From a virus (taxonomy: Duplodnaviria; Heunggongvirae; Uroviricota; Caudoviricetes): DNA of 64,000 nucleotides. The first letter of the stretch is position 1; each line of letters starts with the position of its first letter. The stretch covers positions 222,796 through 286,795 of IMG/VR virus record IMGVR_UViG_3300049044_000033; one strand, written 5' to 3'. A program made the position numbers and the translations under genes. Below are positions 3,873 to 52,938 of this stretch, in pieces. Below the pieces are notes generated by a model. It saw only the letters and a program-made list of their open reading frames with translations. It did not search any database and was not told the DNA's origin.

Positions 3873-4409
3873 TTAGTTTTGCGCACTTTTCTTGCCCGTG
3901 GGAGCAATAATCGCAAACAACTGCCGTTCGCTGCGTGCCACTGGGCGTTCAAACTTGAAATCCTCGAGATAGCTGAGGAATTCTTGCATTACAGATGCAC
4001 CAACATCCAAATGTGTAATCTCACGACCCTTGAACTTGATAACAACCTTGACTTTGTCACCTTCTTCTAGGAAGCCCTGAGCACGCTTTGCCTTGACCTT
4101 GAGGTCATTATTGTCTGTGGTAGGTCTCAGCTGAATTTCCTTCAGCTCAACTCTCGATTCCCTAGACTTCTTAGCAGCTTCCTTGGCACGACGACTCTCG
4201 TCATACTTGAACTTGCCATAGTCCAGAATCTTGCAGACCGGCATACCATTTGCCATGTTGATGGCAACTAGATCCAGTCCTACCTGACGGGCTCGGTTAC
4301 GAGCTTCAATCAGTGAGATAACACCAATCTGCTCGCCGGTGTCACCAATGAGACGTACTTCTTTAGCGCGGATCTGGTCGTTCACCGCATACTTAAAATT
4401 CACAGACAA
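3873..4409 (-). CDS. infC: translation initiation factor IF-3
   Basis: 178 aa. IRAKEVRLIGDTGEQIGVISLIEARNRARQVGLDLVAI...PVCKILDYGKFKYD and the C-domain KVVIKFKGREITH align along the whole length with bacterial IF3. Confidence 0.9.
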   Translation of the reverse strand: MSVNFKYAVNDQIRAKEVRLIGDTGEQIGVISLIEARNRARQVGLDLVAINMANGMPVCKILDYGKFKYDESRRAKEAAKKSRESRVELKEIQLRPTTDNNDLKVKAKRAQGFLEEGDKVKVVIKFKGREITHLDVGASVMQEFLSYLEDFKFERPVARSERQLFAIIAPTGKKSAQN

Positions 4410-4468: not shown

Positions 4469-5719
4469 TCATGCTACGTTGGGATTATCATACAGAACAA
4501 CAGGTTCTGCGTTACCCTCAATAACATCCTTTGTGACCTTAACAGTCACAGCACCCTGATCCTTAAGATCAGGAAGTTCGTATTGTACCTTGATGAGACG
4601 CTTTTCAATGACGCTCCTCAAGCCACGCGCACCAGTCTTTCGGGTGATGGCATCAACTGCCACTGCACGGAGAGCGTCTTCGTCAAACTCAAGAGCAATG
4701 TTCTCAAGCTGGAACATTTTGTTGAACTGCTTCACAAGAGCATTCTTAGGTTCAGTGAGAACCTTAATAAGCTGATCCTGGTCTAGCTCTTCCAAGCTAG
4801 TGATGACTGGTAGACGTCCGACTAGTTCAGGGATCAAACCGAACTTCTGAAGGTCTTCTGGTTCAACGCTACCTAGCAGCTTGCTAGACACCTTGTCCAA
4901 ATCATCCTTCACTGAAGCACCGAAACCAATGCTACCCTTGTTCTTGTTCATGCGCTTGGCAATGATTTCATCCAAGCCCACAAAAGCCCCGCCAACAATG
5001 AACAAGATGTTCTTTGTATTCACAACAGCCATTTCGGCGTTTGGATGCTTGCGGTTACCCTGTAGGGGAACTCGAACTTCACTACCTTCGATGATCTTCA
5101 GCAAAGCCTGCTGGACGCCTTCACCCGATACGTCGCGTGAGATGCTAGCCGAGTCGCCCCTGCGAGCCTTCTTATCAACTTCGTCCAAGTAAATGATGCC
5201 ACGCTCGGCCTTTGCAACATCATTGTCACAGACCTGTAGCAAGCGAGAGATAATCGTCTCAACGTCGTCACCCACGTAACCTGCTTCAGTAAGCGAAGTA
5301 GCGTCAGCGATTGTGAAGGGAACATCAAGCAACTTTGCGATGCTCTTTGCCATTAGGGTCTTACCCGAACCCGTTGGACCGAGGAGCAAGATGTTGCTCT
5401 TCTCAAGTTCAACGTCATCAACCACTGGGTTGGCAAGACGCTTATAGTGATTGTGGACAGCCACAGCCATGACCATTTTGGCATCATTTTGACCGATGAC
5501 ATACTGATCTAGGAATTCACGAATCTGACGAGGGCTTGGGATGGTGCCATCCTTAATAGCCATCTTAGTAGAAGATGAATCATCTTCTTTCAAGATATCA
5601 GCGCAGAGCTGAACGCAGTCATTACAGATGAAGACGTCAGGTCCAGCAATAAGCTTCTGGACATGCTCCTGCTTCTTTCCGCAGAAGCTGCAGGTTAGTG
5701 ATTTCTTATTCTCGCTCAT
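4469..5719 (-). CDS. clpX: ATP-dependent Clp protease ATP-binding subunit ClpX
   Basis: 416 aa. N-terminal C4 zinc finger (CSFCGK...CNDC), Walker A GPTGSGKT, ClpX-type AAA+ body including the LDEVDK Walker B region. Confidence 0.9.
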
Positions 5720-7183: not shown

Positions 7184-7606
7184 TCAGGCGAATAAAGCCT
7201 TTAGCTTCTGCCAGAAAGAAAGCTTTGGCTTAGGAGTGAGGTCCGTAAGACCATTATAGCGGTCAAGGAACTTCCATGAGATGTTCTTAGCGCCGAAGAC
7301 TTCCAGGGCCTTGAATGCCATCTGGGGATCGAGATCGCTACAGGTGTAGATATCGAACTCGATAAATGGCTGCTCACATTCGTCCCAAGTGTGAAGAATC
7401 ATGTGCGAAGTTGTGATGTAAACACCAGCGGTCATGCCGCGATTGCCTACCTGCTCACAATATTCCGCAGATGCTTCCTTGAGGACTTCCATGTCCATAG
7501 CGTGAACGATATCGGTGAGCCATTGCTCGACGAATCGCTCATCCTTCTTCAATGGTGGATTGTCCACGTGAGCGTGGACGATAAGGTGCTTGTGAAGCTT
7601 TGCCAT
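7184..7606 (-). CDS. speD: S-adenosylmethionine decarboxylase proenzyme (small pyruvoyl-dependent class)
   Basis: 140 aa. ITTSHMILHTWDE resembles the ESHIxIHTWPE self-cleavage/active-site motif of class 1 AdoMetDC. Confidence 0.7.
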   Translation of the reverse strand: MAKLHKHLIVHAHVDNPPLKKDERFVEQWLTDIVHAMDMEVLKEASAEYCEQVGNRGMTAGVYITTSHMILHTWDECEQPFIEFDIYTCSDLDPQMAFKALEVFGAKNISWKFLDRYNGLTDLTPKPKLSFWQKLKALFA

Positions 7607-15749: not shown

Positions 15750-16414
15750 TGGCGTCTAACCCTCTTGGTGAAACTAGGGCCTTGTTTGAGATTGCCCACT
15801 TGAGTCTCAACATGCCTGCTCTTTTGAGAGATGCACCAAAGGGTGACGGTCATCCTGTTATTGTGCTGCCTGGTTTCTGCGCTGGGCAGCACAGCACATT
15901 AGTCCTCCGCTACCTACTCAACGAGTTAGGTTATAAACCGATCGACTGGGGACAAGGCGTCAACTTAGGTCCGAGTGATTCACAAGATGCTGCCTTAGAT
16001 GCACTCTTGGCTAAATCTTCTGAGCACCAGCAAGTCAGTTTGATTGGGTGGAGTCTCGGCGGAATGTATGCTAGAGCTCTAGCAAATGAGTTTCCCGATA
16101 AGGTGCGCAGAGTCTTTACCCTAGGAACCCCGCACAAGAGCGATCCAACATCTAGCAACCTACGTGCTATCTTTGAGCTAGTTAGTTCTAAGAAGCTCTC
16201 AGATTTGGATTTAGAAGAGGTTCTCAGGATGATCAAAGATCCCCCAGTCCCGCTAGTGAGCCTCTATACCAAAAGTGACGGCGTGGTAAACTGGAAGGAT
16301 TGTATCGCGGATGGTCCTTTGACAGAAAACGTCGAGGTCACAGGAAGCCACTTAGGACTTACCCACAACCTCGACGTCCTTAACGCCCTGTTGGAGCGGC
16401 TACCTCAACGGTAG
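15746..16414 (+). CDS. alpha/beta-hydrolase fold protein (lipase/esterase-like)
   Basis: 222 aa. GWSLGG nucleophile elbow (GxSxG). ATGA overlap with the upstream stop. Confidence 0.6.
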   Translation: MMASNPLGETRALFEIAHLSLNMPALLRDAPKGDGHPVIVLPGFCAGQHSTLVLRYLLNELGYKPIDWGQGVNLGPSDSQDAALDALLAKSSEHQQVSLIGWSLGGMYARALANEFPDKVRRVFTLGTPHKSDPTSSNLRAIFELVSSKKLSDLDLEEVLRMIKDPPVPLVSLYTKSDGVVNWKDCIADGPLTENVEVTGSHLGLTHNLDVLNALLERLPQR

Positions 16415-17709
16415 TAGGTAAACTCCAAACCGCTCGCAGTCTTAATCGTCCGCTTGAATCGGTGCATGTCGTTGGGCAGATCCTCAACTGAGGTATCAAT
16501 ATCCGTGCCTACTGTCTCGGTATAGTTCTGAGCGTAGTAGCCGCTACCACGAGAAGCACTTCTAGTTTCAGCTAGGATGTCACCGGTGTCTTTGAATACA
16601 TCTTCCAGGATATGAGTGTATCGTGTGGTCCAGTTGCCCTTGAGATAGTGGGGATGGTGATTCGAACCACCTGGCGCATATTGCTTCTTATACATGTAGT
16701 CGCCTACATCAACAAGAACCATCTGGCCATTGTAGTTCGAGAAGAAAGAACCTTGAACTAGATAGCGCCAGAAATACGTAGGGTTGGTCTTCAAATATAC
16801 TTCATTCTCTTTGCTGAGATTTGAGGTAATATCATCCAAGGTTGTGAGCTCAACTTCTTCCTCGAAGTTGTTCATATCCAGCAGTTCGATGGAGACCCCG
16901 ATAACACCAGCATAATGCTGCCCGGCTTCGTCAAAGCTAACGCCTTCCTTGATCTGGCGGTTAACTTCAGCTTCGGCTTCCTCATGGGTGAGTTCCTTCT
17001 CACCGGAGAATAGTTCAGAAAGCTTTGCCGAACTAGTGGCTTTGAAGAACTTATGAGACGAAATCCCATCTCTACCGGGAGTCTGCATCAAGAATACATG
17101 ACGCTTCTTACCAGTCGTAGAAGCCTGTTTCGTTAGACCGTTGCCATACTTCTCATAAGAAGTAACATAGAACGCACCATAGTAGATGCCTTCGTCGCCG
17201 TTCTGAAGAATCGCAGTATCACCCCGCTTGATATCCTTCATGCTAGCAGACTTGCTAATCCGTTCGGTATTTCGAGCAGCATTGCGATAAACGTCACTGT
17301 CTACGGGAACGAGAATGTTTTCATTGCCCAAACGAGCCCAAATACATTCTTCGAGAATCTCGCCCTTTTCGAGGGTGCAGAAGCTAATGATCTGCGCAAA
17401 ATTGGGAGAGGAAATCTCCAGCTCAAACCCACGAGGGTCTTCAATGCGCCACTTCACATTGCCCTGTCCCCAGCCGTAACCGTGACGAACGCTGCGACCC
17501 ATCTTAAAGCCGATCATAGGCGTGTTGTCATAGGTCTGCGCTTCTTTGGTCTTTGAAGCCCAACCATCTACAGTAGACTTGCGCTTCTCGAAAGCTTTGT
17601 CTGTACCATGTGGTGTCATAAAGCCAAGTGGAACCGAATCCTGGCCCTCTCGACTCTGGAACCCAACATAATGCTTTGCGGGAAACTTGATACTCTTGTT
17701 GTCAGACAA
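16405..17709 (-). CDS. hypothetical protein (434 aa)
   Basis: Long ORF, no motif recognised. Confidence 0.5.
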   Translation of the reverse strand: MSDNKSIKFPAKHYVGFQSREGQDSVPLGFMTPHGTDKAFEKRKSTVDGWASKTKEAQTYDNTPMIGFKMGRSVRHGYGWGQGNVKWRIEDPRGFELEISSPNFAQIISFCTLEKGEILEECIWARLGNENILVPVDSDVYRNAARNTERISKSASMKDIKRGDTAILQNGDEGIYYGAFYVTSYEKYGNGLTKQASTTGKKRHVFLMQTPGRDGISSHKFFKATSSAKLSELFSGEKELTHEEAEAEVNRQIKEGVSFDEAGQHYAGVIGVSIELLDMNNFEEEVELTTLDDITSNLSKENEVYLKTNPTYFWRYLVQGSFFSNYNGQMVLVDVGDYMYKKQYAPGGSNHHPHYLKGNWTTRYTHILEDVFKDTGDILAETRSASRGSGYYAQNYTETVGTDIDTSVEDLPNDMHRFKRTIKTASGLEFTYYR

Positions 17710-17835: not shown

Positions 17836-18075
17836 CTAACTTGTCAACTTGATGACTATCGCATAGCGACGTTCAATCTTCTCGATTGCTTCCAAGTAAG
17901 GCTTAGCTGCCTCGTCTGCGGCTTCCTTTTTGGCTTGATTCATCTCGCGCTTGAGATCCTGAATCTGACTCCAAAGAAGACGAGCCGCCCCTTCTTCCGC
18001 TAACGCACCTGCTTCGCCCGTAGAAGACGACATCAATTCCTTACGGACCTTTTCTAGAACCGAACCTGTCTTCAT
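17836..18075 (-). CDS. hypothetical small protein
   Basis: 79 aa, coiled-coil-like. Start overlaps the upstream stop. Confidence 0.4.
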   Translation of the reverse strand: MKTGSVLEKVRKELMSSSTGEAGALAEEGAARLLWSQIQDLKREMNQAKKEAADEAAKPYLEAIEKIERRYAIVIKLTS

Positions 18076-18650
18076 ACAAACTCTGCGTTAACTCCGCATT
18101 GACGGAGGTAGTTGACGCTTGACATGATCTTAGTCTGCCAAGACGATTGCTCAGTGCCTTCTGGCTTCACGGGTAGCGTGATATCTACCCAGTTACCTAC
18201 TGCGCTCTCAACCGCGTGTTTGGCATCAACCAATCCCATACCAGTCACAGCGCGAAGTTCCTTGATCGCATTAATCTTCTGGTACGAGTTATTGTGTGGA
18301 TCAATGCGGATCCGCAGATGACGAACGTTTGGGTATTTGTTGGACACAATGCCGAGAATCAAACGAGCCTTCCAGTCCTTACCCAAGACAGGAACCAGTG
18401 CCTCCATAGCATCAACCGCAGTATCGCGAGTGTAATGCTGCTTGATAGCCCGTAAGAACGCCGCAGAAGCCTCATCGAGGAATGCGAAACCGTCATCGGG
18501 TGTATCTGGATCAATCAGTGGCACAAAAACTCCTTTACCTGCACTCTCATTAGCACCTAGACTACCTGTGTCAACCCTTTCATATAAGTATTGTGCTGGA
18601 AAGAATAGCTTGTTAATATGAAGTATGGTTTGGACGTTTAAACAACGCAT
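18072..18650 (-). CDS. protein with ribosomal bL12 (L7/L12) C-terminal domain
   Basis: C-terminal about 70 aa, KINAIKELRAVTGMGLVDAKHAVESAVG...VKPEGTEQSS, matches the bL12 CTD signature ([25 protein letters not shown]). The N-terminal about 120 aa are unrelated. 5' end uncertain. Confidence 0.6.
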   Translation of the reverse strand: MRCLNVQTILHINKLFFPAQYLYERVDTGSLGANESAGKGVFVPLIDPDTPDDGFAFLDEASAAFLRAIKQHYTRDTAVDAMEALVPVLGKDWKARLILGIVSNKYPNVRHLRIRIDPHNNSYQKINAIKELRAVTGMGLVDAKHAVESAVGNWVDITLPVKPEGTEQSSWQTKIMSSVNYLRQCGVNAEFV

Positions 18651-19218
18651 CCATAGGGCATGCCAAGCCCTAATAGATCGGAGTGCTATTGAGGAGTCTC
18701 AAGTCGAGACACTCAAGCGACCGCTCTACTTTGGCAGATATGCCTATGGCGTAGGGCTTTCTCTCGATCTTAAGAAATGGGGAGATTGGTTCGAAGTCAA
18801 GGATCAAGTTCACGCTTTACTGTCTGATCTTGATTGTGCGATACAGAGCAACCGAAAAACCTACCAATTCAATGTATTCTCCAGCGATCCAAAGGTGCTG
18901 CGTTGTTTGATGAAGTCTAAGGATTTCACAATCAACCACGTTCGCATTGTGGATCAAACTTGTTGGCATCTCAAACTCCCGAAGCCAAAGCCCAAGGGCA
19001 AATTCTACGGAGAGTTCGGATGGCGGTTCGCTTTCAAGGACCGCCATTGGGGAGATAAGCCTGAAAATTTAGAAGTGCTGGAGACACTCTCGGGAAGCTA
19101 TAAACTCGTAGTTCAACCACGATCGTTTCTCTATCTTTCTAATATCTCAGACGTCCTGCTTTTCAAACTCGTCGCGAGCGAGCAACTGTTGAGCTTGGAT
19201 GATAGGCACACCTTGTAG
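18625..19218 (+). CDS. hypothetical protein, distant FKL-motif relative
   Basis: 197 aa. SDVLLFKLVASEQ near the C-terminus. Confidence 0.4.
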   Translation: MVWTFKQRIHRACQALIDRSAIEESQVETLKRPLYFGRYAYGVGLSLDLKKWGDWFEVKDQVHALLSDLDCAIQSNRKTYQFNVFSSDPKVLRCLMKSKDFTINHVRIVDQTCWHLKLPKPKPKGKFYGEFGWRFAFKDRHWGDKPENLEVLETLSGSYKLVVQPRSFLYLSNISDVLLFKLVASEQLLSLDDRHTL

Positions 19219-19912: not shown

Positions 19913-20632
19913 TTACTTCTTAAAGTTCTCAATACAAGCTTTAATCTTGTCTATTGACAAGTTTCCAACATCAACGCTGAATACCTTACGGATACTATCA
20001 GCTGCTTGGGCAAAGAAGAGATCTTCCGTCATCGTCATTGGGTTAGTTTCTACTGGATCAACATCGCCGTAGTAGACGGCAGAATTAGCGCCATGTTCGA
20101 AGCATTCAACGCTCACTAGACGAACGTCAGGATTGACCGCATAACGACCGAGCTCGCCACTCTTCATCTTCTCAAGAAGCTCAACCGACTTCTCGTAAAC
20201 CAGCTTGGCGGTCAATTCACAGCCAACACCAGGAACAATTCGGAGAGCACAGAGACGACCGCGTTCGTAGGGCTTGGCAATCGTGCTATTGCCAACCTGG
20301 TCAGTTTCAACGCTAGACGGCTTCACACCATCATAGTCATCAATCGTAGATGCACGAGCAAGGGTCTTAAAGGTATCAAGAGCCGGATCATCCTCAGCAA
20401 CCAAGATCGTATGATCGAACATATAGTCCAGGTATTCCTTAATAGGCTTCATTCCGCCGAAATCAAAACACCAGTTCTTTTCATCAAGCGTCTCAGATTC
20501 CCAGACGAACTTGAAGCCTAGGCTGTAGCCGTGAAGGGTAGAGCAGTGTGAGTGATTAGCTTTCCATTGACGGAAGCAGCAAGATAGTCCACGGTCGTTG
20601 CCGTAGGTTTTAGTAGATTGAAACTTTGCCAT
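19913..20632 (-). CDS. T-fold protein, QueD/6-pyruvoyl-tetrahydropterin-synthase-like
   Basis: 239 aa. HSHCSTLHGYS resembles the CxxxHGH zinc motif of PTPS/QueD. Confidence 0.45.
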   Translation of the reverse strand: MAKFQSTKTYGNDRGLSCCFRQWKANHSHCSTLHGYSLGFKFVWESETLDEKNWCFDFGGMKPIKEYLDYMFDHTILVAEDDPALDTFKTLARASTIDDYDGVKPSSVETDQVGNSTIAKPYERGRLCALRIVPGVGCELTAKLVYEKSVELLEKMKSGELGRYAVNPDVRLVSVECFEHGANSAVYYGDVDPVETNPMTMTEDLFFAQAADSIRKVFSVDVGNLSIDKIKACIENFKK

Positions 20633-20764: not shown

Positions 20765-21142
20765 ATGAGCAAGGGTTTGTCAAAGGATGATCTAGAGGCT
20801 TGGAAGCAGGTGACCAAGGATGTGACACCCCTTGGTAGTGCCCCTGTGAGCCCCGTAGAAGGCCTGCCCTGTGTTAGGGTGTCAGCGCCTCGCTCAGTAG
20901 AGTATCACCCCCGTATGGACTTACACGGGGCAACAATCCATAATGCTTACGCGATGGTACAAGAGCATGTGCTTAAAGGTGCTATGCTGGGTTATAGAAC
21001 TCTGACCGTTATCAGTGGGAGGTCTGGTCAGATCAACATTGAGATGCCCCGGTGGCTTGAAAGAAATCCGCACGTTAGATCGGTCAACCCTAAAAACGGC
21101 GGCGGAGCCTGGGAAATATGTCTCAAGAGAAAAGATACGTAG
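20765..21142 (+). CDS. Smr (small MutS-related) domain protein
   Basis: MDLHGATIHNAYAMV...LTVISGRSG fits the Smr LDLHG...HGKG core. Confidence 0.6.
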   Translation: MSKGLSKDDLEAWKQVTKDVTPLGSAPVSPVEGLPCVRVSAPRSVEYHPRMDLHGATIHNAYAMVQEHVLKGAMLGYRTLTVISGRSGQINIEMPRWLERNPHVRSVNPKNGGGAWEICLKRKDT

Positions 21143-29152: not shown

Positions 29153-30352
29153 TTAGCGGGCATTAAGCTGTGCCTGTCGCTGTGCTGCCGAGGCCAGCGA
29201 TTCCTTGAGCTTCTGCTCTGCTGCGATCAAACGCTGCTCAGCATCGGCGCGCTTGGCCTTACCTTGCTCTGCGAGATCGATGGACTCATTGATCGTAGCG
29301 ATCAAGAGTTCATTAGCCTGTTCCGCTGCCTCAACATCGAAGATGCCGCGCTCGATTTCCTTGCGGGCAACTGCGTTGCTAGTATTGAGCTGCTTCGCGG
29401 ACTGAACGATCAGCTCGTTGGTGAAATCAGTAGCCGTCTTAGTGGCCTTGCCGGCTTCTTCTGCGCGCCATGCTGCAATGGAAACAGCCATAGTGCGCTT
29501 CCAGAGGGGCAAAGTATTGAGCAGCTGACTCTGGATCTTCTCTGCGAGACCCTTATCATTTGCCTGGACGATGCGGATGCTAGGTAGCGCCTGGATGGTC
29601 AGGTTACGCGTCAGCAAGAGATCAGCCCGCTTGCGTTCCAGAGAATCACGAGCTTCGGTCAAGTCCCGCAGATCCTGCACATCTGCCATATCACCGCTGG
29701 CATCGGACTTAGCCTTGGCGGCCGGGATCATATTCGTGTTAACGTCCTCGAGCAGGTAGTCCATAGCGGCAATCTGCTCATCGAGCGAATCCAGCAGACC
29801 CAACGTGGCTTCGTATTGCTTGTCGAGTGCCACAATATCCTTGAGCATCTGGACGCGATGCCCTTCAAGAACGTTGTAGGTCTTGAGAATCTGACCTTCG
29901 ACCGTCTGGTAGCGATCCAGGAACTTCTGCAGGACGCTGGCCTTACCTAGCAGCTTTTGGAAGAAGCCAGGCTTCTGACCAGTAGCAAGAGCCGCAAAAT
30001 CCAGCCCCTTCATTTCGCGGACCATCTGGTTCATCGCGTCGCCGACTGGACCAGTATCCTTGGTACGAACGCCCTGGAGCATTTGTTCGGAAACTTGCGT
30101 AGTTGCCTTCTGTGCTTCAACGCCGAAGGTGATAATCGACTGACTATCCTTGAGGTTGATCTTGCTTGCGAGCTCCTTGGCACGTTCGCGCGACACCTTG
30201 TTGGGAATACGTCCGGCCTGACCATTGAGGCTGACAATATCCTGAGATCCGATCTCAGGCACGGTCAGAGCATTTTCAGCCGTCGGTGTGGGGAGAAGTT
30301 CACCGGTCAACGACGGGGTCGCCGTACCGATCTTTGTAGGATCACTTGCCAT
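29153..30352 (-). CDS. TelA-like (toxic anion resistance family) protein
   Basis: 399 aa alpha-helical protein. Family-level resemblance only. Confidence 0.4.
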   Translation of the reverse strand: MASDPTKIGTATPSLTGELLPTPTAENALTVPEIGSQDIVSLNGQAGRIPNKVSRERAKELASKINLKDSQSIITFGVEAQKATTQVSEQMLQGVRTKDTGPVGDAMNQMVREMKGLDFAALATGQKPGFFQKLLGKASVLQKFLDRYQTVEGQILKTYNVLEGHRVQMLKDIVALDKQYEATLGLLDSLDEQIAAMDYLLEDVNTNMIPAAKAKSDASGDMADVQDLRDLTEARDSLERKRADLLLTRNLTIQALPSIRIVQANDKGLAEKIQSQLLNTLPLWKRTMAVSIAAWRAEEAGKATKTATDFTNELIVQSAKQLNTSNAVARKEIERGIFDVEAAEQANELLIATINESIDLAEQGKAKRADAEQRLIAAEQKLKESLASAAQRQAQLNAR

Positions 30353-30354
30353 TT

Positions 30355-31071
30355 TTAGATTCCCTCGTTGTTGAGTCGGTTCTTCATAACAGTCATGTTG
30401 ACATCAAAGTCCATGACATCATTTGCCAAAAGCTTGTCGAGCAGCTTTTGGAAATTATCATCGATGGTGTCGAGCATTTCGTCGAACTGTGCCATCTGCT
30501 TCTGTGCTTCGAGATTGCGAGCACCGGTCCGGCTCAGCTGAGCATAGCCCTTGACTAGTGTGATCGTTTCATCCAAGTAACTGTTGAGCCAGCTTTGAGC
30601 CAGCAAAACGTCCTTGGGATCAACGCGGAAATCCTCGATGATCTTACGACCAATAGCATCAATATGCTTGATGCGTCGGATTGTGTTGGGGCTCTTGATC
30701 TGGGTAGCTTCCATGAGGATCCGGTCCAGCTTGTCACTGCCCATCTTGATCGCTTCCACGACCAGCTTCGTATCCACGCCCGAAGTACCTGCTGCGATAT
30801 CGTCAATATGCCGGTAGAGATCCTTAATGTCTTGTGCGGTTGCCGGGCGCCGACCAGGGAAGAAGTACCAAATCCCTAATCCAGTTGCTGCGCTCAACGG
30901 GCCAGCTAGTGCGAGATCACCGATAAAGGAAAGTGGGAAAGCAGCCATGCCGCTTACAAAGACACACGTTGCGCCTCCAAATGCTGCTAACTTACTCACT
31001 AGATCTTTGTTCATCGGTTCCTCGCTTAACACTGGCTCCTTTATAGCAAGGTTTACCAATGTGTCTACCAC
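30355..31071 (-). CDS. hypothetical membrane-associated protein (238 aa)
   Basis: ORF with hydrophobic N-terminal segments, coupled to its neighbours. Confidence 0.45.
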   Translation of the reverse strand: MVDTLVNLAIKEPVLSEEPMNKDLVSKLAAFGGATCVFVSGMAAFPLSFIGDLALAGPLSAATGLGIWYFFPGRRPATAQDIKDLYRHIDDIAAGTSGVDTKLVVEAIKMGSDKLDRILMEATQIKSPNTIRRIKHIDAIGRKIIEDFRVDPKDVLLAQSWLNSYLDETITLVKGYAQLSRTGARNLEAQKQMAQFDEMLDTIDDNFQKLLDKLLANDVMDFDVNMTVMKNRLNNEGI

Positions 31072-31129
31072 TGATTAGAAAAGAAAGGGCGACATTGCTG
31101 CCGCCCCTTCTCCTATAGGTTAGTCCAAC

Positions 31130-32869
31130 TTAGTCTTCTGGGTTAATACCAGCAAGCTTCTGGATCTCAGCCTTCTCGCTAGGAGCAAGAGGAGCCTCGA
31201 TTACCGTCTTAGCTACGCGACGTGCTGCTGGCTTTGCAACCTGCGGAGCACCCACGACTGCCAGACCTTCATCATCCAGAGGAGCAGCAACCGATTCGAC
31301 CAGACCATTAAGGCCACGGCTCAGGTCAACGCCAAGCTCGCGAGCCAGTTCGTCAACAACCGGAACCTGCAGTCGGTAGCCCAGCATCGAGTTGGTCAGG
31401 TCAGTAGCGAGGTTTCCTGTAGGAGCCGACTGACCGCCGAAACCTTCGCCATTGGAATGACCGCCCAGGCCACCCATCTGAACTACGCGGATGCTGTCGA
31501 CCTTCTCCATCGGCTTGGTCATCTTTTCCATGATGGCCGGCAGAGCTTCAATCAGAGCCTTGCGCATGTTGTATGCCATCTGGGCAGAGCTTGTCACGTT
31601 AGCAGCTTCGTTGAGGGCGCGCTGACCTTCCGATTCAACTTCGTAACGCTTTGCGTCAGCGTCGATGAGGCGTTCCTTGGCCTGTGCGCTTGCGTCAGCA
31701 GCAGCCAGTTCAGCTTCAGCACGGATACGAATACCCGCAGCTTCTTCCTGAGCCTTAGTCTCAGCCGCAATAACAGCAACCTTCTGGCTACGTTCTGCCT
31801 GTGCCTGTGCCTCAACAGTCTTCACCGCTTCAGCAGCCTTAACAGCTTCCGCGCGAGCAGCATCAGCAGCCGCACGGGCCTTGGATTCCTGCTCCGACTT
31901 CTCAGCAACCGCAATACGTGACTGCTGGCTAGCAATCTCGAGAGCCTGCGCTGCTTCAGTTTCGGCTACCTGGATAGCGCGCTTCTGTTCGACGCGAGCC
32001 TGCTCAGTAGCACGAGCAGCTTCAATTTCTGCCAGATCAGATTCACGCTTACGGTCGGCGCGGGTCTGGGCCAGTTCAGCTTCCTGCTGGGCACGACGGG
32101 TTTCAACTTCGCGCTCCTGCTCCAGGGTAGCGAATTCGTCCTGCTGCTTAATATCCAGCGAGCGCTTGTTGGCTTCGAAGTTCTTCTGCTCAATCGCAAC
32201 GCGGTTGTCAGCTTCGATGTCGTTACGCTCCTTCTTGCGAGTCTCAGTAACCTGAGTCAGCTTCGCAAGACCTTCAGCGTCGAAGGCGTTGTTGGGGTTG
32301 AAGAATTCAACCGAAGTCTGGTCCAGACCAGTTAGCGACACCGATTCAAGTTCCAGACCGTTCTTGCGCAGGTCTTCAGCAACAGTTGCCTGAACCTTCT
32401 GAACAAACTCAGCGCGCTTTTCGTGAAGGTCCTGCATATCCATACCAGCTGCCGCAGCACGGAGAGCGTCGATGAACTTGCCTTCAATTAGCGAAGCCAG
32501 CTGATCAGGAGCCAAGGTGCGGCGACCAAGCGTCTGTGCCGCAGCCGCAATGCTCTGCTCATCTGGAGCAACACGAACATAGAACTCTGCCTTCACGTCA
32601 ACGCGCAGACGGTCCTTAGTGATCAGCGAATCACGACCCTTACGTTCGACACCGAGACGCAGCGTCTGCATGTTGATGGGGATGGTTTCGTGGAACACTG
32701 GCAGAATAACAGCGCCACCGTCCTTAACGACCTTCTGTCCACCCATACCAGTACGGACAAAAGACTGTTCCTTGCTTGCGCGATGGAACATTTTGGTCAT
32801 GATCAAACCGATGACCATGAAACCTACTAGGAAGACGCCTAGCAGAATACCTGCAAATTGAAGAGTCAC
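31130..32869 (-). CDS. SPFH/band-7 flotillin-like protein (YqiK-like)
   Basis: 579 aa. N-terminal TM, SPFH core (VRTGMGGQKVV...), then a long Ala/Glu-rich repetitive coiled coil (AEAELAAADASAQAKE). Confidence 0.75.
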   Translation of the reverse strand: MTLQFAGILLGVFLVGFMVIGLIMTKMFHRASKEQSFVRTGMGGQKVVKDGGAVILPVFHETIPINMQTLRLGVERKGRDSLITKDRLRVDVKAEFYVRVAPDEQSIAAAAQTLGRRTLAPDQLASLIEGKFIDALRAAAAGMDMQDLHEKRAEFVQKVQATVAEDLRKNGLELESVSLTGLDQTSVEFFNPNNAFDAEGLAKLTQVTETRKKERNDIEADNRVAIEQKNFEANKRSLDIKQQDEFATLEQEREVETRRAQQEAELAQTRADRKRESDLAEIEAARATEQARVEQKRAIQVAETEAAQALEIASQQSRIAVAEKSEQESKARAAADAARAEAVKAAEAVKTVEAQAQAERSQKVAVIAAETKAQEEAAGIRIRAEAELAAADASAQAKERLIDADAKRYEVESEGQRALNEAANVTSSAQMAYNMRKALIEALPAIMEKMTKPMEKVDSIRVVQMGGLGGHSNGEGFGGQSAPTGNLATDLTNSMLGYRLQVPVVDELARELGVDLSRGLNGLVESVAAPLDDEGLAVVGAPQVAKPAARRVAKTVIEAPLAPSEKAEIQKLAGINPED

Positions 32870-32885
32870 TTAATTCTCCTATGAA

Positions 32886-33530
32886 TTAGATCTTACGCAC
32901 CATGTGGGCGTGATTAATTGACCTATGTGGACCGGTTAGCACCGCAGTTTCACCCACATCAATATTTTCTTCACCATCGGCAAAGACATAAACGTAATGA
33001 TCAGTACCATACTGATCGGTTACCCGGATTGAACCACTCTGGGTATTTGAGACTGGTCCGACAACAATAGGACCGGATAGATTAGATAAACTTTCCAGAG
33101 ATACCGCGGATGTAATATCTCTAGGCATTAATTGTGCAGCCACAATCGACCCCCAACGAACAAAGGGGAGCGTCAATGAGAACACAATAGGACAACTGAG
33201 CAACATAGGAGCATAGGCACCTGTCAGGCCTTCATAGACCCACTGTGCGCTATATCCAAGGATTGTGAACACTGTGCTGAAGATCACAAGGAAGATCATC
33301 ACTGGAACACTTCCAGGATTAAACCAACCTAAGATGTGAGAGTCTACTTCTAAGTAGTCGGGAATGCCGTTCCCGTTCAGATCCGCAGAGAAATCTATAT
33401 CATGATGGAATGAGCTAAAGCCCAAAATCAATCCGATGATTTCAAGAACCAAAATAGCACCGAGGAGACACGCACTCACAAGGAATGGTGTGTTGGCTTG
33501 TGCTAGTAAGAAAGTAGAAATGTTGTCCAT
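32886..33530 (-). CDS. NfeD-like membrane protein (YqiJ-like partner of flotillin)
   Basis: 214 aa. Multiple TM helices plus a C-terminal beta-rich segment, immediately upstream of the SPFH gene in the same orientation, as in yqiJK operons. Confidence 0.5.
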   Translation of the reverse strand: MDNISTFLLAQANTPFLVSACLLGAILVLEIIGLILGFSSFHHDIDFSADLNGNGIPDYLEVDSHILGWFNPGSVPVMIFLVIFSTVFTILGYSAQWVYEGLTGAYAPMLLSCPIVFSLTLPFVRWGSIVAAQLMPRDITSAVSLESLSNLSGPIVVGPVSNTQSGSIRVTDQYGTDHYVYVFADGEENIDVGETAVLTGPHRSINHAHMVRKI

Positions 33531-34052: not shown

Positions 34053-34124
<72 letters not shown>

Positions 34125-34170
34125 CATGTTGTGTGCTCTCTTTGTAGCACCTACATACCTATTTAGCAAT

Positions 34171-35604: not shown

Positions 35605-35975
35605 GCCAAAAGAAAATGCCCCGTTTCCGTTGATCAGTCGGGGCCACACTGCACCTAGAGAGTTGATCCTCTAGGGATTGTGAGGCATAGGAGTCTACCG
35701 AAGCTTCTTCCTAACCTCGCCGCAATCAAGCAGCGAGCGCCTCGACAACATTGTTGTCATTTGCATTTACATGCTTGGTCTTTTAGAGGAACCACCCTCG
35801 TCATCTCTCGCAGCCGTTTGCTCCCACGTCGATCCTAAGCTCAGGCCCATCATAACCGCTCTTTGCAGAGCCAAGCCACTCCTTAGGTAAAGTGACTCTC
35901 AGTTATGGTGGACCTGCCGGGTACCGCCCCCGGGTCCGCTAGTCGCTATTAAGCTTTGGTCATCAATAACATCAC
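35605..35975 (-). ncRNA. ssrA: tmRNA (ssrA), circularly permuted two-piece type
   Basis: On the minus strand, an acceptor segment GGAC-CCGGG-GGCGGTA-CCCGG-CAGGTCC-ACCA (T-arm plus 3' acceptor strand plus CCA, ending at plus 35906) lies upstream of a coding segment. That segment starts GGGCCTGAGCTTAGGATCGACGTGGG at plus 35848 (compare E. coli GGGGCUGAUUCUGGAUUCGACGGG) and gives a G3-U wobble with the 3' strand. A PK1-like CGAGGGTGGTTCCTCTAAAAGACC follows, then tag ORF GCA AAT GAC AAC AAT GTT GTC GAG GCG CTC GCT GCT TGA = ANDNNVVEALAA-stop (plus 35765-35727). The terminator hairpin GCCCCG...CGGGGC plus TTTTCTTTT lies at about 35606-35644. The 5' limit of the acceptor piece is not defined. Confidence 0.75.
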
Positions 35976-36009
35976 TCTTATAACATTGGTTTGCCAATGC
36001 GTCAAGAGC

Positions 36010-51025: not shown

Positions 51026-51271
51026 ATGGGCGATCTATTTAAAAGTGTAGTCGAAATGATCGCGAAGGGCGAAGCAGGTTCACTGACGGCTATCCTTCTA
51101 GCTATCATCGGGGTTCTGGGATGGTATTGCTACCGTCTTATGAAGCAGGTGGAAAAGAAGGACGAGAAGATCTACAAGATCATCGACGAATATTCCAAGA
51201 ACAACATTACCATCACTGATGCGTTGAATGGTCTAAAGACTGTGTTGATCGAGATTAAGGCAAAGCTCTAA
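51026..51271 (+). CDS. small membrane protein
   Basis: 81 aa, one TM helix (SLTAILLAIIGVLGWYCY). AAGGAG RBS 8 nt upstream. Confidence 0.45.
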   Translation: MGDLFKSVVEMIAKGEAGSLTAILLAIIGVLGWYCYRLMKQVEKKDEKIYKIIDEYSKNNITITDALNGLKTVLIEIKAKL

Positions 51272-52938
51272 TGTGGTTCAATAAGGATAAAAAGGCTAAG
51301 AAGCAGCAAAGGGAAGCAGTTCTAAAAGCTGCGATGGAATCTAGCGAAGCTTTGGAAAAGGCCGCTAAGGGGACCATGAATCTAGCCGAAGATGTTACTA
51401 AGACTCTTCAGAGCCGAATTGATGATTATGCCCAGCAGATTGACCAAACAGCCCGCCTCCTAAGTGATGCCCTCATGCTTGTTGATGATCACGGAATCAT
51501 TGAAAGCTTCAACCAAGCAGCTGAAAGCATGTTTGGTCATGCTCGTCGTTCAATTAGAGGCAAGAATCTTTCTACCCTTTTTGAATTCCAACAAGACACA
51601 AAGATCACCCCAGACTTCATGGAAGAGCTGATGAACAAGGTGAGCGAGAATGATCTCTCTGCTACTGTTCATTATGAAGACTTTATGGGAGTCCGCAAGG
51701 ATGACACGAAGTTCTATGTTGATGTAGGCGTAAGCAAAATCATCCGTAGCAATTCAAAAGTCAAGTATATCATCCTGGTTCGTGACGTAAGCCAAAAGGT
51801 CATGAATAGCAAGATGCTAGAAGAATTAGCTCAGAGGAACCAAGAACTCCTAGCAACTATCGATGCTTCAAATACTGGGTTCATCATTATTAGTCCTGAT
51901 GGTAGTGACTTCAAGATCAACTTCGTGAATGAAGGCTTTAGTCGCCTAACTGGTTATTCGAGAACTCAAATACGTAACATGAGTCTAATGGACCTTCTTG
52001 GCATAGAGCAGACATTCTGGTCAGTGCGCCGCAGTCTATTGGAGCACGTAGAAGCACGTCATGAAGTTCAGCTAGAAATCGGCAACTGTCAGACTATTTG
52101 GTTCGACGTTCAGATTACACCGGTCTTTCAGAATGGTGTGTTGAACCAGTGGATTCTAGTATTCTATGATACTACCGCACTCAAGAAGGCCTATCACGAC
52201 CTACGCAAAAGCGAGTCGCACTTTAAGGCATTCAGTGACGCTAGCTCTGAAAGTATGTTGATTCACAACTTTGGCCAGGTGATTGATTGGAATGATCGAC
52301 TCAATAAGCTGACCGGCTACTCTGACGAAGAGATCGAGCAACTCGGTCCACTAGATTTGGTTCATCCTTTAGAGCGTGAAAAGATTCGTGACGAAGTTCA
52401 TCTTCTAGGTAGTAACAGCTACGAAACCCTCTTCATGACCAAGCAGGGAGACGTTCGAGAAGTAGCAGTGAATAGTCGTTCAATTGAATGGGAAAATGCT
52501 GACGCTCGTATTGCTATCGTGCGTGATGTAACTGAATACAAGGATATCGAGACTCAGCTAAAAACAGCTAGAGAGCGTTACCGCACTGTCATTGATAACA
52601 CAATCGACATGGTGATCTGCTTTAATGCCAATTTCGAGATCACTTTTAGCAACCAGACCTTCCGAGACTACTATGATGTAGAACTCGAAGATATTAATGG
52701 ATTCTCCCTCCTAGAGATTATCCCAGAGCCTGATCACCGCAAGTTCATGGAGTATATGTTGAGCATTACTCCTGATATGCAAGTTCGTCGTGGAATTCAT
52801 CGCGTTCAGCGTCACGATGAGGTTAGAATGCAGGATTGGATCGATCGTGGTATCTTTGATGAAGATGGCACCTTGATCGAAATCCAAAGCATTGCTCGAG
52901 ATGTAACGAGTCTACTTCCTCCCCCAAATCAGACTTGA
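51271..52938 (+). CDS. multi-PAS domain protein without recognisable output domain
   Basis: 555 aa. About four PAS-like modules (for example LMLVDDHGIIESFNQAAESMFGH, FIIISPDGSDFKINFVNEGFSRLTGYS, MLIHNFGQVIDWNDRLNKLTGYS, MVICFNANFEITFSNQTFRDYY). ATG overlaps the upstream stop. Confidence 0.65.
   Translation: MWFNKDKKAKKQQREAVLKAAMESSEALEKAAKGTMNLAEDVTKTLQSRIDDYAQQIDQTARLLSDALMLVDDHGIIESFNQAAESMFGHARRSIRGKNLSTLFEFQQDTKITPDFMEELMNKVSENDLSATVHYEDFMGVRKDDTKFYVDVGVSKIIRSNSKVKYIILVRDVSQKVMNSKMLEELAQRNQELLATIDASNTGFIIISPDGSDFKINFVNEGFSRLTGYSRTQIRNMSLMDLLGIEQTFWSVRRSLLEHVEARHEVQLEIGNCQTIWFDVQITPVFQNGVLNQWILVFYDTTALKKAYHDLRKSESHFKAFSDASSESMLIHNFGQVIDWNDRLNKLTGYSDEEIEQLGPLDLVHPLEREKIRDEVHLLGSNSYETLFMTKQGDVREVAVNSRSIEWENADARIAIVRDVTEYKDIETQLKTARERYRTVIDNTIDMVICFNANFEITFSNQTFRDYYDVELEDINGFSLLEIIPEPDHRKFMEYMLSITPDMQVRRGIHRVQRHDEVRMQDWIDRGIFDEDGTLIEIQSIARDVTSLLPPPNQT

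Follow-up and report, generated by a model that had tools for sequence, protein, structure and literature searches.

The 64,000-nucleotide stretch of DNA analysed here (the window; positions 222,796 to 286,795 of IMG/VR virus record IMGVR_UViG_3300049044_000033, a member of the Caudoviricetes) encodes on its minus strand a 150-amino-acid (aa) protein in which a novel three-helix module is joined to a complete C-terminal domain (CTD) of ribosomal protein bL12, 83 residues in length. We are confident that this protein is the product of a real, expressed phage gene, that it has two domains and is not a bL12 orthologue, and that it belongs to the class of virus-encoded bL12-domain proteins. What it does is a matter for more tentative proposal: the three-helix module may hold the protein on a fixed partner while the CTD contacts host translational GTPases, an adaptor mechanism that, judged from sequence, we regard as plausible rather than probable. 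Identity and mechanism taken together are our best explanation of the locus, one that as a whole falls just short of being probable. The coding sequence, the two domains and the most conserved motif lie as follows:

18072..18524, minus strand: true coding sequence of the bL12-CTD protein, 150 aa, with a GTG start and a TGA stop at 18074..18072, placed by homologue alignments, the ribosome-binding site (RBS) and gene calls
18339..18524, minus strand: N-terminal family-specific domain (N-domain), residues 1-62, a three-helix bundle (helices 10-30, 33-47 and 49-60) with the motifs KQHYTRDTAV and LGKDWK
18075..18323, minus strand: bL12 CTD fold, residues 68-150, made up of b1 69-74, a4 83-94, a5 98-107, b2 113-116, a6 126-142 and b3 145-149
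18204..18278, minus strand: helix 4-turn-helix 5 motif KINAIKELRAVTGMGLVDAKHAVES, residues 83-107, recognised by Pfam PF00542, a PDB profile search, hhalign and column conservation

Mechanical translation of the locus gives a longer open reading frame (ORF), 18072..18650 on the minus strand, which reads as 192 aa with the C-terminal end ...KINAIKELRAVTGMGLVDAKHAVESA...GVNAEFV. An earlier note, made from the sequence alone, had proposed that this ORF carries a genuine bL12 CTD fused to an unrelated N-terminal module, and our analyses bear this out. Pfam finds a single family in the ORF, PF00542 (Ribosomal_L12), with an E value of 1.6e-7 and a score of 32 bits (gathering cut-off, 25.9); the match, significant but short, covers ORF residues 124-150 and profile positions 11-37 of 67 (27/67). 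When PDB sequences were searched with a profile of the family, the significant matches were all to bL12, the best being 1dd3_A (E 7e-7), and when the 44-member family was compared with E. coli bL12 by hhalign, the probability was 96.6% and the E value 5.4e-10 over 33 columns (residues 78-110, helices 4-5). The helix 4-turn-helix 5 motif corresponds to K65-S89 of E. coli bL12, the GTPase-docking face; in bL12, it is at a conserved, positively charged site formed by helices 4 and 5 that IF2, EF-Tu, EF-G and RF3 are bound (PMC6753160, which cites Helgstrand 2007 and Kothe 2004). We assessed the conservation of the corresponding residues in an alignment of 44 representatives, reaching down to ~23% identity with the window protein:

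K83 (E. coli K65), kept in 42 of 44
I84 (E. coli V66), kept in 42 of 44
I87 (E. coli I69), kept in 44 of 44
K88 (E. coli K70), kept in 42 of 44
R91 (E. coli R73), kept in 43 of 44
G97 (E. coli G79), kept in 39 of 44
L98 (E. coli L80), kept in 43 of 44
E100 (E. coli E82), kept in 33 of 44, with Asp in a further 8
A101 (E. coli A83), kept in 33 of 44, with Ser in a further 10
K102 (E. coli K84), kept in 44 of 44
E106 (E. coli E88), kept in 42 of 44

The near-invariant positions all lie in helices 4 and 5, with the exception of G48 and W51 in the N-domain and G144 in the final strand of the CTD, and the helix 4/5 positions are the most conserved of the CTD (n=44). Both the significant profile match and the retention of the contact residues thus uphold the earlier proposal of a bL12 CTD. 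An AlphaFold2 model built on a 20-sequence alignment (mean pLDDT 78.5, pTM 0.50) gives residues 68-150 the complete b-a-a-b-a-b topology of this domain, and structural comparison yielded a confident full-domain match of the CTD, with T. maritima L12 ranked first by Foldseek (E 3.9e-4). That the ORF is not a gene, or that its resemblance to bL12 is a chance or low-complexity match, might be argued from the small part of the Pfam profile that is aligned. The 21 homologues at E <= 2e-22, the confident structural match, and the conservation of gene order, RBS and promoter described below all contradict it, as does an exhaustive search with a hidden Markov model (HMM) of the family, which gave 2,745 matches at E <= 1e-3 and 245 representative clusters at E <= 1e-10. 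We give this explanation a negligible chance of being right.

With TIGR00855, the bL12 equivalog model of NCBIfam, the protein reaches 24.8 bits where the cut-off is 84.4, and homology is limited to the CTD; it is accordingly no bL12 orthologue. As the earlier note had stated, the N-terminal domain (NTD) and hinge of bL12 are absent: PF16320, the dimerisation and bL10-binding NTD, gave no Pfam match at E<=1, and hhalign aligned helices 4-5 alone. In the model, about 8 residues (SNKYPNVR) separate the end of helix 3 at residue 60 from the start of b1 at residue 69, and the 150-aa sequence has no Ala/Gly/Pro-rich segment of the kind that forms the flexible hinge of bL12. The possibility that the N-domain is a diverged bL12 NTD was ruled out by Pfam, hhalign and structural comparison, and matches to the N-terminal (UBA-like) domain of EF-Ts were only marginal (1aip_C, E 0.072; TIGR00116, E 0.087, 12 bits). 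The three-helix bundle replaces both the dimerisation/bL10-binding domain and the hinge. Like bacterial bL12 (rplL; 1ctf, 1dd3 and 8yeq), then, the window protein keeps the pattern K-[VI]-x-x-I-K-x-x-R-x(5)-G-L-x-E-A-K-x-x-V-E and the C-terminal "G-x-x-V-E" strand; unlike bacterial bL12, it is without NTD, flexible hinge and rplJ-rplL operon context, and its b2 and a6 are unrelated in sequence.

This anatomy bears directly on whether the protein could replace bL12 in host ribosomes, with its N-domain seated on the C-terminal helix of bL10 and factor recruitment altered. The retained factor-binding face would suit such stalk substitution, as would the phage's investment in translation (IF3, transfer-messenger RNA (tmRNA) and transfer RNA (tRNA)), the annotation of L7/L12, S21 and IF-3 in related phages (PMC11242549), and the detection by mass spectrometry of one peptide of the bL12-domain protein of phage FSL SP-076 in purified 70S ribosomes (Mizuno et al. 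2019, Nat Commun 10:752; PMC6375957). The N-domain, however, has no likeness to the bL12 NTD, the Ala/Gly-rich hinge is replaced by the short linker, the equivalog score is far too low, and a tagged viral bL12 protein proved unusable for the affinity purification of ribosomes (PMC6375957). We consider stalk substitution quite unlikely.

The gene is shorter than the mechanical ORF of 192 aa, whose start at 18650 the earlier note had adopted. Among 20 metagenome homologues of the ORF (E 1e-72 to 2e-22), 19 are 149-157 aa long, with alignments that begin at ORF residue 43; the sole exception, P0007 (182 aa), has an upstream extension that is not conserved. Residue 43 is the GTG at 18524, which is preceded by AAAGGAG and a spacer of 5 nucleotides (nt), and related contigs with gene calls have the same start position. 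We aligned the 70 nt before the start codon in the window with those of eight related loci (L001, L003, L005, L009-L012 and L014). In six of these eight, in-frame stops lie 12-87 nt upstream of the start, and in the window the 42-codon extension would overlap a divergent gene that starts at 18625. Upstream of the corrected start lie:

18530..18535, minus strand: Shine-Dalgarno sequence AAGGAG, 5 nt upstream of the GTG, from the upstream alignment
18547..18574, minus strand: putative sigma-70-like promoter inside the spurious ORF extension, with TTGACA at 18574..18569, a 16-nt spacer and TAATGA at 18552..18547, from a consensus match in the upstream alignment
18525..18650, minus strand: non-coding 5' extension of the mechanical ORF, consisting of intergenic DNA, promoter included, which the divergent 197-aa gene shares

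The lengths of the homologues, the RBS, the promoter, the upstream stops and the overlap with the divergent gene together place the real gene at 18072..18524 (minus strand, 150 aa), and on this comparative evidence the ORF is non-coding over its first 42 codons. The N-terminal part that is not bL12 accordingly measures ~65-80 aa, and not the ~120 aa of the earlier note. AAGGAG is kept in seven of the eight related loci, the divergent locus of Sinorhizobium phage Phosso (L005) having AAGGAT, and TTGACA is present in the window and in all eight, followed by a TA-rich -10-like element. Retention of a perfect TTGACA and a -10-like element across diverged phages suggests transcription by the host sigma-70 RNA polymerase, as of an early gene. 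For a regulatory RNA such as an L10-leader in the intergenic region there was no support, a search of Rfam giving no match near the bL12-like gene.

The N-domain is the most conserved segment of the protein in the close subfamily, where mean pairwise identity is 0.80 in the N-domain helices, 0.68 in helices 4-5 and ~0.3 in the remaining CTD. About 40 of the top 150 HMM matches are two-domain family members, and the N-domain was never seen without the CTD, either in the family HMM search or in a search with a profile of the N-domain only, in which candidate retrieval was poor; the latter returned two further proteins with both domains and nothing else. The genes that adjoin the bL12-like gene are similarly constant:

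17836..18075, minus strand: 79-aa helical protein, co-transcribed and a likely partner, whose ATG overlaps the TGA of the bL12-like gene as ATGA (translational coupling)
16405..17709, minus strand: 434-aa protein, third gene of the collinear block, PHROG families 6266, 30990 and 2475
18625..19218, plus strand: divergent 197-aa gene, a conserved neighbour according to gene order across related loci

The order 197-aa gene (divergent), bL12-like gene, 79-aa gene, 415-465-aa gene and topoisomerase gene (convergent) is found in the window contig and in 9/9 related loci of the Phosso clade. The 79-aa gene lies directly downstream of the bL12-like gene in every Phosso-clade locus examined, and in each of the five related loci with gene calls the two share 1-4 nt. 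Agrobacterium phage Atu_ph07 keeps homologues of the 197-aa and 434-aa genes and lacks both the bL12-like and the 79-aa genes, and these two therefore appear to have been gained or lost together.

Because the N-domain is the most constrained part of the protein and the coupled 79-aa partner is always present in the clade, a tether or adaptor fits the data better than a decoy. In the adaptor mechanism, the gene would be transcribed by host RNA polymerase, probably early, from the consensus-like sigma-70 promoter. The constrained N-domain would anchor the protein to a fixed partner, for which the 79-aa protein is our first choice and a ribosomal site the second, and the CTD would contact host translational GTPases in the way that stalk bL12 does, through weak, fast and charge-driven interactions. 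The outcome would be that factor recruitment is modulated or redirected in infection, beside the activities of the phage IF3, tmRNA, tRNA and CCA-adding enzyme.

A pure decoy, as the earlier note had envisaged, would be a free CTD that titrates translational GTPases off host ribosomes, so that translation is shut down or throttled. Such a role leaves both the strong constraint on the N-domain (80% identity vs 68% and ~30%) and the obligatory 79-aa neighbour unexplained, and it would starve phage translation as well. Furthermore, the bL12 CTD binds the factors weakly and with fast exchange, as Helgstrand et al. are reported to have found in 2007, and EF-Tu is extremely abundant, making stoichiometric sequestration by a monovalent 150-aa protein implausible. 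The retained contact residues of helices 4 and 5, a promoter that resembles the early sigma-70 type and the lack of a ribosome-anchoring NTD would all be compatible with a decoy, which we nonetheless regard as very unlikely.

Several observations weigh against the adaptor mechanism, or against parts of the case for it. At the level of sequence, homology to bL12 spans only ~33 residues (helices 4-5), the remainder of the CTD being predicted by the model (mean pLDDT 78.5, pTM 0.50), and in the fold search ClpS was the second-best structural match. The family HMM also retrieves many bacterial proteins with 3-7 tandem copies of the motif or of the whole CTD, and among these P0039 has a signal peptide and P0045 a membrane anchor, with the motif kept. 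In such secreted or anchored repeat proteins the motif may serve fold stability or bind another ligand, GTPase docking being unlikely, so that conservation of the motif is by itself no proof of GTPase binding. A diverged family member from another phage lineage (locus L015) has bS21, HSP20 and DNA ligase as neighbours and neither the 79-aa nor the 434-aa gene, which means that the proposed partner is not universal to the family. Finally, a generic promoter scan chose another, weaker site that was not above the shuffle background; the promoter given here is one that we infer from its consensus match alone.

Two of these observations, the structural similarity to ClpS and the retention of the motif in multi-repeat bacterial proteins that are presumably extracytoplasmic, would suit a use outside translation, with the bL12/ClpS-like module acting as a general protein binder, for example one that serves the phage ClpX, or a Clp protease of the host, as adaptor, and the motif being structural or serving another ligand. 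That the phage encodes a ClpX (4469..5719), and that the domain is found as an insertion in phage proteins of widely differing kinds and genomic surroundings (PMC6375957), is also in keeping with such a use. The sequence homology, however, is specific to bL12, whereas ClpS (PF02617) gave no Pfam match at E<=1 and none in the PDB sequence search; the resemblance to this N-degron adaptor is at the level of the fold only, and the conserved motif of the window protein is that of bL12. The conserved, exposed Lys and Arg residues are exactly those of the bL12 factor-binding face, and ClpS works with ClpA, not ClpX. We judge a non-translational use unlikely and retain the adaptor mechanism as our preferred, tentative explanation.

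Virus-encoded bL12-domain proteins are already known as a class, and the idea put forward in the earlier note was anticipated by Mizuno et al. (PMC6375957), who found bL12 domains in seven cultured phages and many uncultured ones, often embedded in larger unrelated polypeptides with the EF-G/EF-Tu contact residues kept, and proposed that they are interfaces for translation factors. What is new here is the delineation of the family, its N-domain, the corrected start and the coupled partner. Like the proteins of Ralstonia RSB3, Dinoroseobacter DFL12phi1 and Salmonella FSL SP-076, the window protein is phage-encoded, carries the PF00542 CTD alone together with non-ribosomal sequence, and keeps the EF-G/EF-Tu contact residues. 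The cultured examples, however, have genomes of <80 kb, belong mostly to N4-like podoviruses and have other flanks, whereas the window family has its own three-helix N-domain and, in its core clade, is found in jumbo phages of 390-480 kb, as part of a fixed three-gene block with the coupled 79-aa protein.

Structural matches in BFVD include bL12-domain proteins of crAss-like phages, Ralstonia phage RSJ5 and Klebsiella phage KpCHEMY26. A two-domain match was obtained with A0A6J7WGF4, "Ribosomal protein L7/L12, C-terminal", of an uncultured Caudovirales phage (BFVD/UniProt; Foldseek E 3.7e-8), which aligns with the window protein over 139 columns at a TM-score of 0.64/0.71; database members of the two-domain family are only 23-24% identical to the window protein. 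Phosso gp509, a hypothetical protein of 173 aa, is a diverged member, to which the family HMM gives 70 bits and whose gene neighbourhood is the same. Gp556 of the 471-kb Sinorhizobium phage AP-J-162, annotated as "50S ribosomal protein L7/L12" beside IF-3 and S21 (PMC11242549), is probably of the same family, going by the annotation text of that paper, and L7/L12 is one of the translation genes listed for huge phages by Al-Shayeb et al. (2020). The multi-repeat bacterial proteins (P0026, P0039, P0045 and P0086, the last being Clostridium gasigenes QSW21420.1), some of them automatically annotated as "ribosomal protein L7/L12", share the helix 4/5 motif outside the ribosome and apparently represent a non-ribosomal use of the bL12 domain. 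They differ from the window protein in being cellular, in their tandem copies and in having no three-helix N-domain, and some carry signal peptides, membrane anchors or HEAT-like repeats.

The third gene of the block belongs, by the N-terminal ~180 aa of its 434-aa product, to a large family, which tblastn detects in 354 phage records and of which metagenomes supply 327 homologues. Phages with a member include Pakpunavirus, Bastille-like Bacillus phages, PA5oct, Lak megaphages and RaK2-like phages. None of the 327 homologues has an annotation, and the 434-aa protein has no match in PDB sequences, Pfam or NCBIfam. Neither a bL12-like nor a 79-aa gene lies beside the 434-aa homologue in the three loci checked (PaoP5, B5S and PA5oct). 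The idea, in the manner of a Rosetta stone, that the 434-aa protein is homologous to the flanks of the 418-aa bL12-domain proteins of N4-like phages was not supported by the distribution of homologues. PADLOC gave no defence-system match for the bL12-like, 79-aa, 434-aa or 197-aa proteins or for a 222-aa hydrolase.

The phage that carries these genes is a T4-related jumbo phage of Alphaproteobacteria, ~400-480 kb in size. An identical bL12-like protein is found on JGI contigs of 406-462 kb, and homologues are found on contigs of 104-481 kb, four of them in IMG/VR. The window contains the viral hallmarks T4-type topoisomerase II, ribonucleotide reductase, DnaB, endolysin and virion proteins, and comparison of topoisomerase II places the phage nearest, among those in culture, to Phosso (469 kb, 66.7% identity) and Atu_ph07 (490 kb, 56.6%). 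Searches of the INPHARED cultured phages, by megablast of the 12 kb around the gene and by tblastn of the ORF, gave no match, and the relationship with Phosso emerged only through the 434-aa neighbour and the family HMM. With tblastn of gp509 against cultured phages, Phosso itself was the only match. The homologous DNA at hand, at about 50-60% amino-acid identity, has diverged too far for a meaningful dS. The translation-related genes of the window are those for IF3, a CCA-adding enzyme, an Smr-domain protein, tRNA-Thr and an alpha-type tmRNA, and the following were mapped together with two further genes:

3873..4409, minus strand: full-length IF3 (IF3_N + IF3_C; E about 1e-27), adjoining the phage ClpX and SAM decarboxylase
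4469..5719: ClpX
7184..7606: SAM decarboxylase
34053..34125, minus strand: tRNA-Thr, anticodon GGT
35687..36009, minus strand: permuted two-piece tmRNA of alphaproteobacterial type (Rfam RF01849, 84.7 bits; RF04321, 96.2 bits)

The type of the tmRNA supports an alphaproteobacterial host; an inhibitor of trans-translation in M. tuberculosis is reported to act via binding to bL12 (PMC12548414). The Smr-domain protein (125 aa; 20765..21142, plus strand) is encoded beside the locus in every related phage; SmrB of bacteria is a nuclease that acts at ribosome collisions, and the phage protein may be another translation-linked gene product. Nearby, at 19913..20632 (minus strand), is a QueD/PTPS protein of 239 aa, compared with 179-185 aa in related phages, with ~50 aa extra at its C-terminus. 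Elsewhere in the window are a membrane-stress-type cluster at 29153..33530 (minus strand) that encodes TelA, a Halogen_Hydrol-family protein, a flotillin/SPFH protein (579 aa) and YqiJ; a 555-aa protein at 51271..52938 (plus strand) that is nearly all PAS (four PAS_9 stretches, E 2e-41) and lacks a recognisable output domain, which is unusual for a phage; and a NADAR protein.

A bolder reading of the data can be imagined, although we consider it a long shot. The bL12-CTD protein and its 79-aa partner could together form a mini-stalk, either off the ribosome or ectopically anchored, in which the 79-aa helix would be the counterpart of the C-terminal helix of bL10 and the N-domain that of the bL12 NTD; it would capture host IF2, EF-G, EF-Tu or RF3 and pass them to phage-favoured ribosomes or to the phage tmRNA/IF3 system.

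Phage proteins that carry the factor-binding domain of the stalk alone are widespread; by itself, our finding leaves current understanding unchanged. The family does offer a clean study case, as its members are small and have two well-separated domains, a strict docking face, a constrained anchoring domain and a candidate partner encoded next door, and there is a cultured representative, gp509-gp510 of Sinorhizobium phage Phosso, in a genetically tractable host. A mini-stalk, if true, would be a new viral route to reprogramming factor recruitment rather than initiation.

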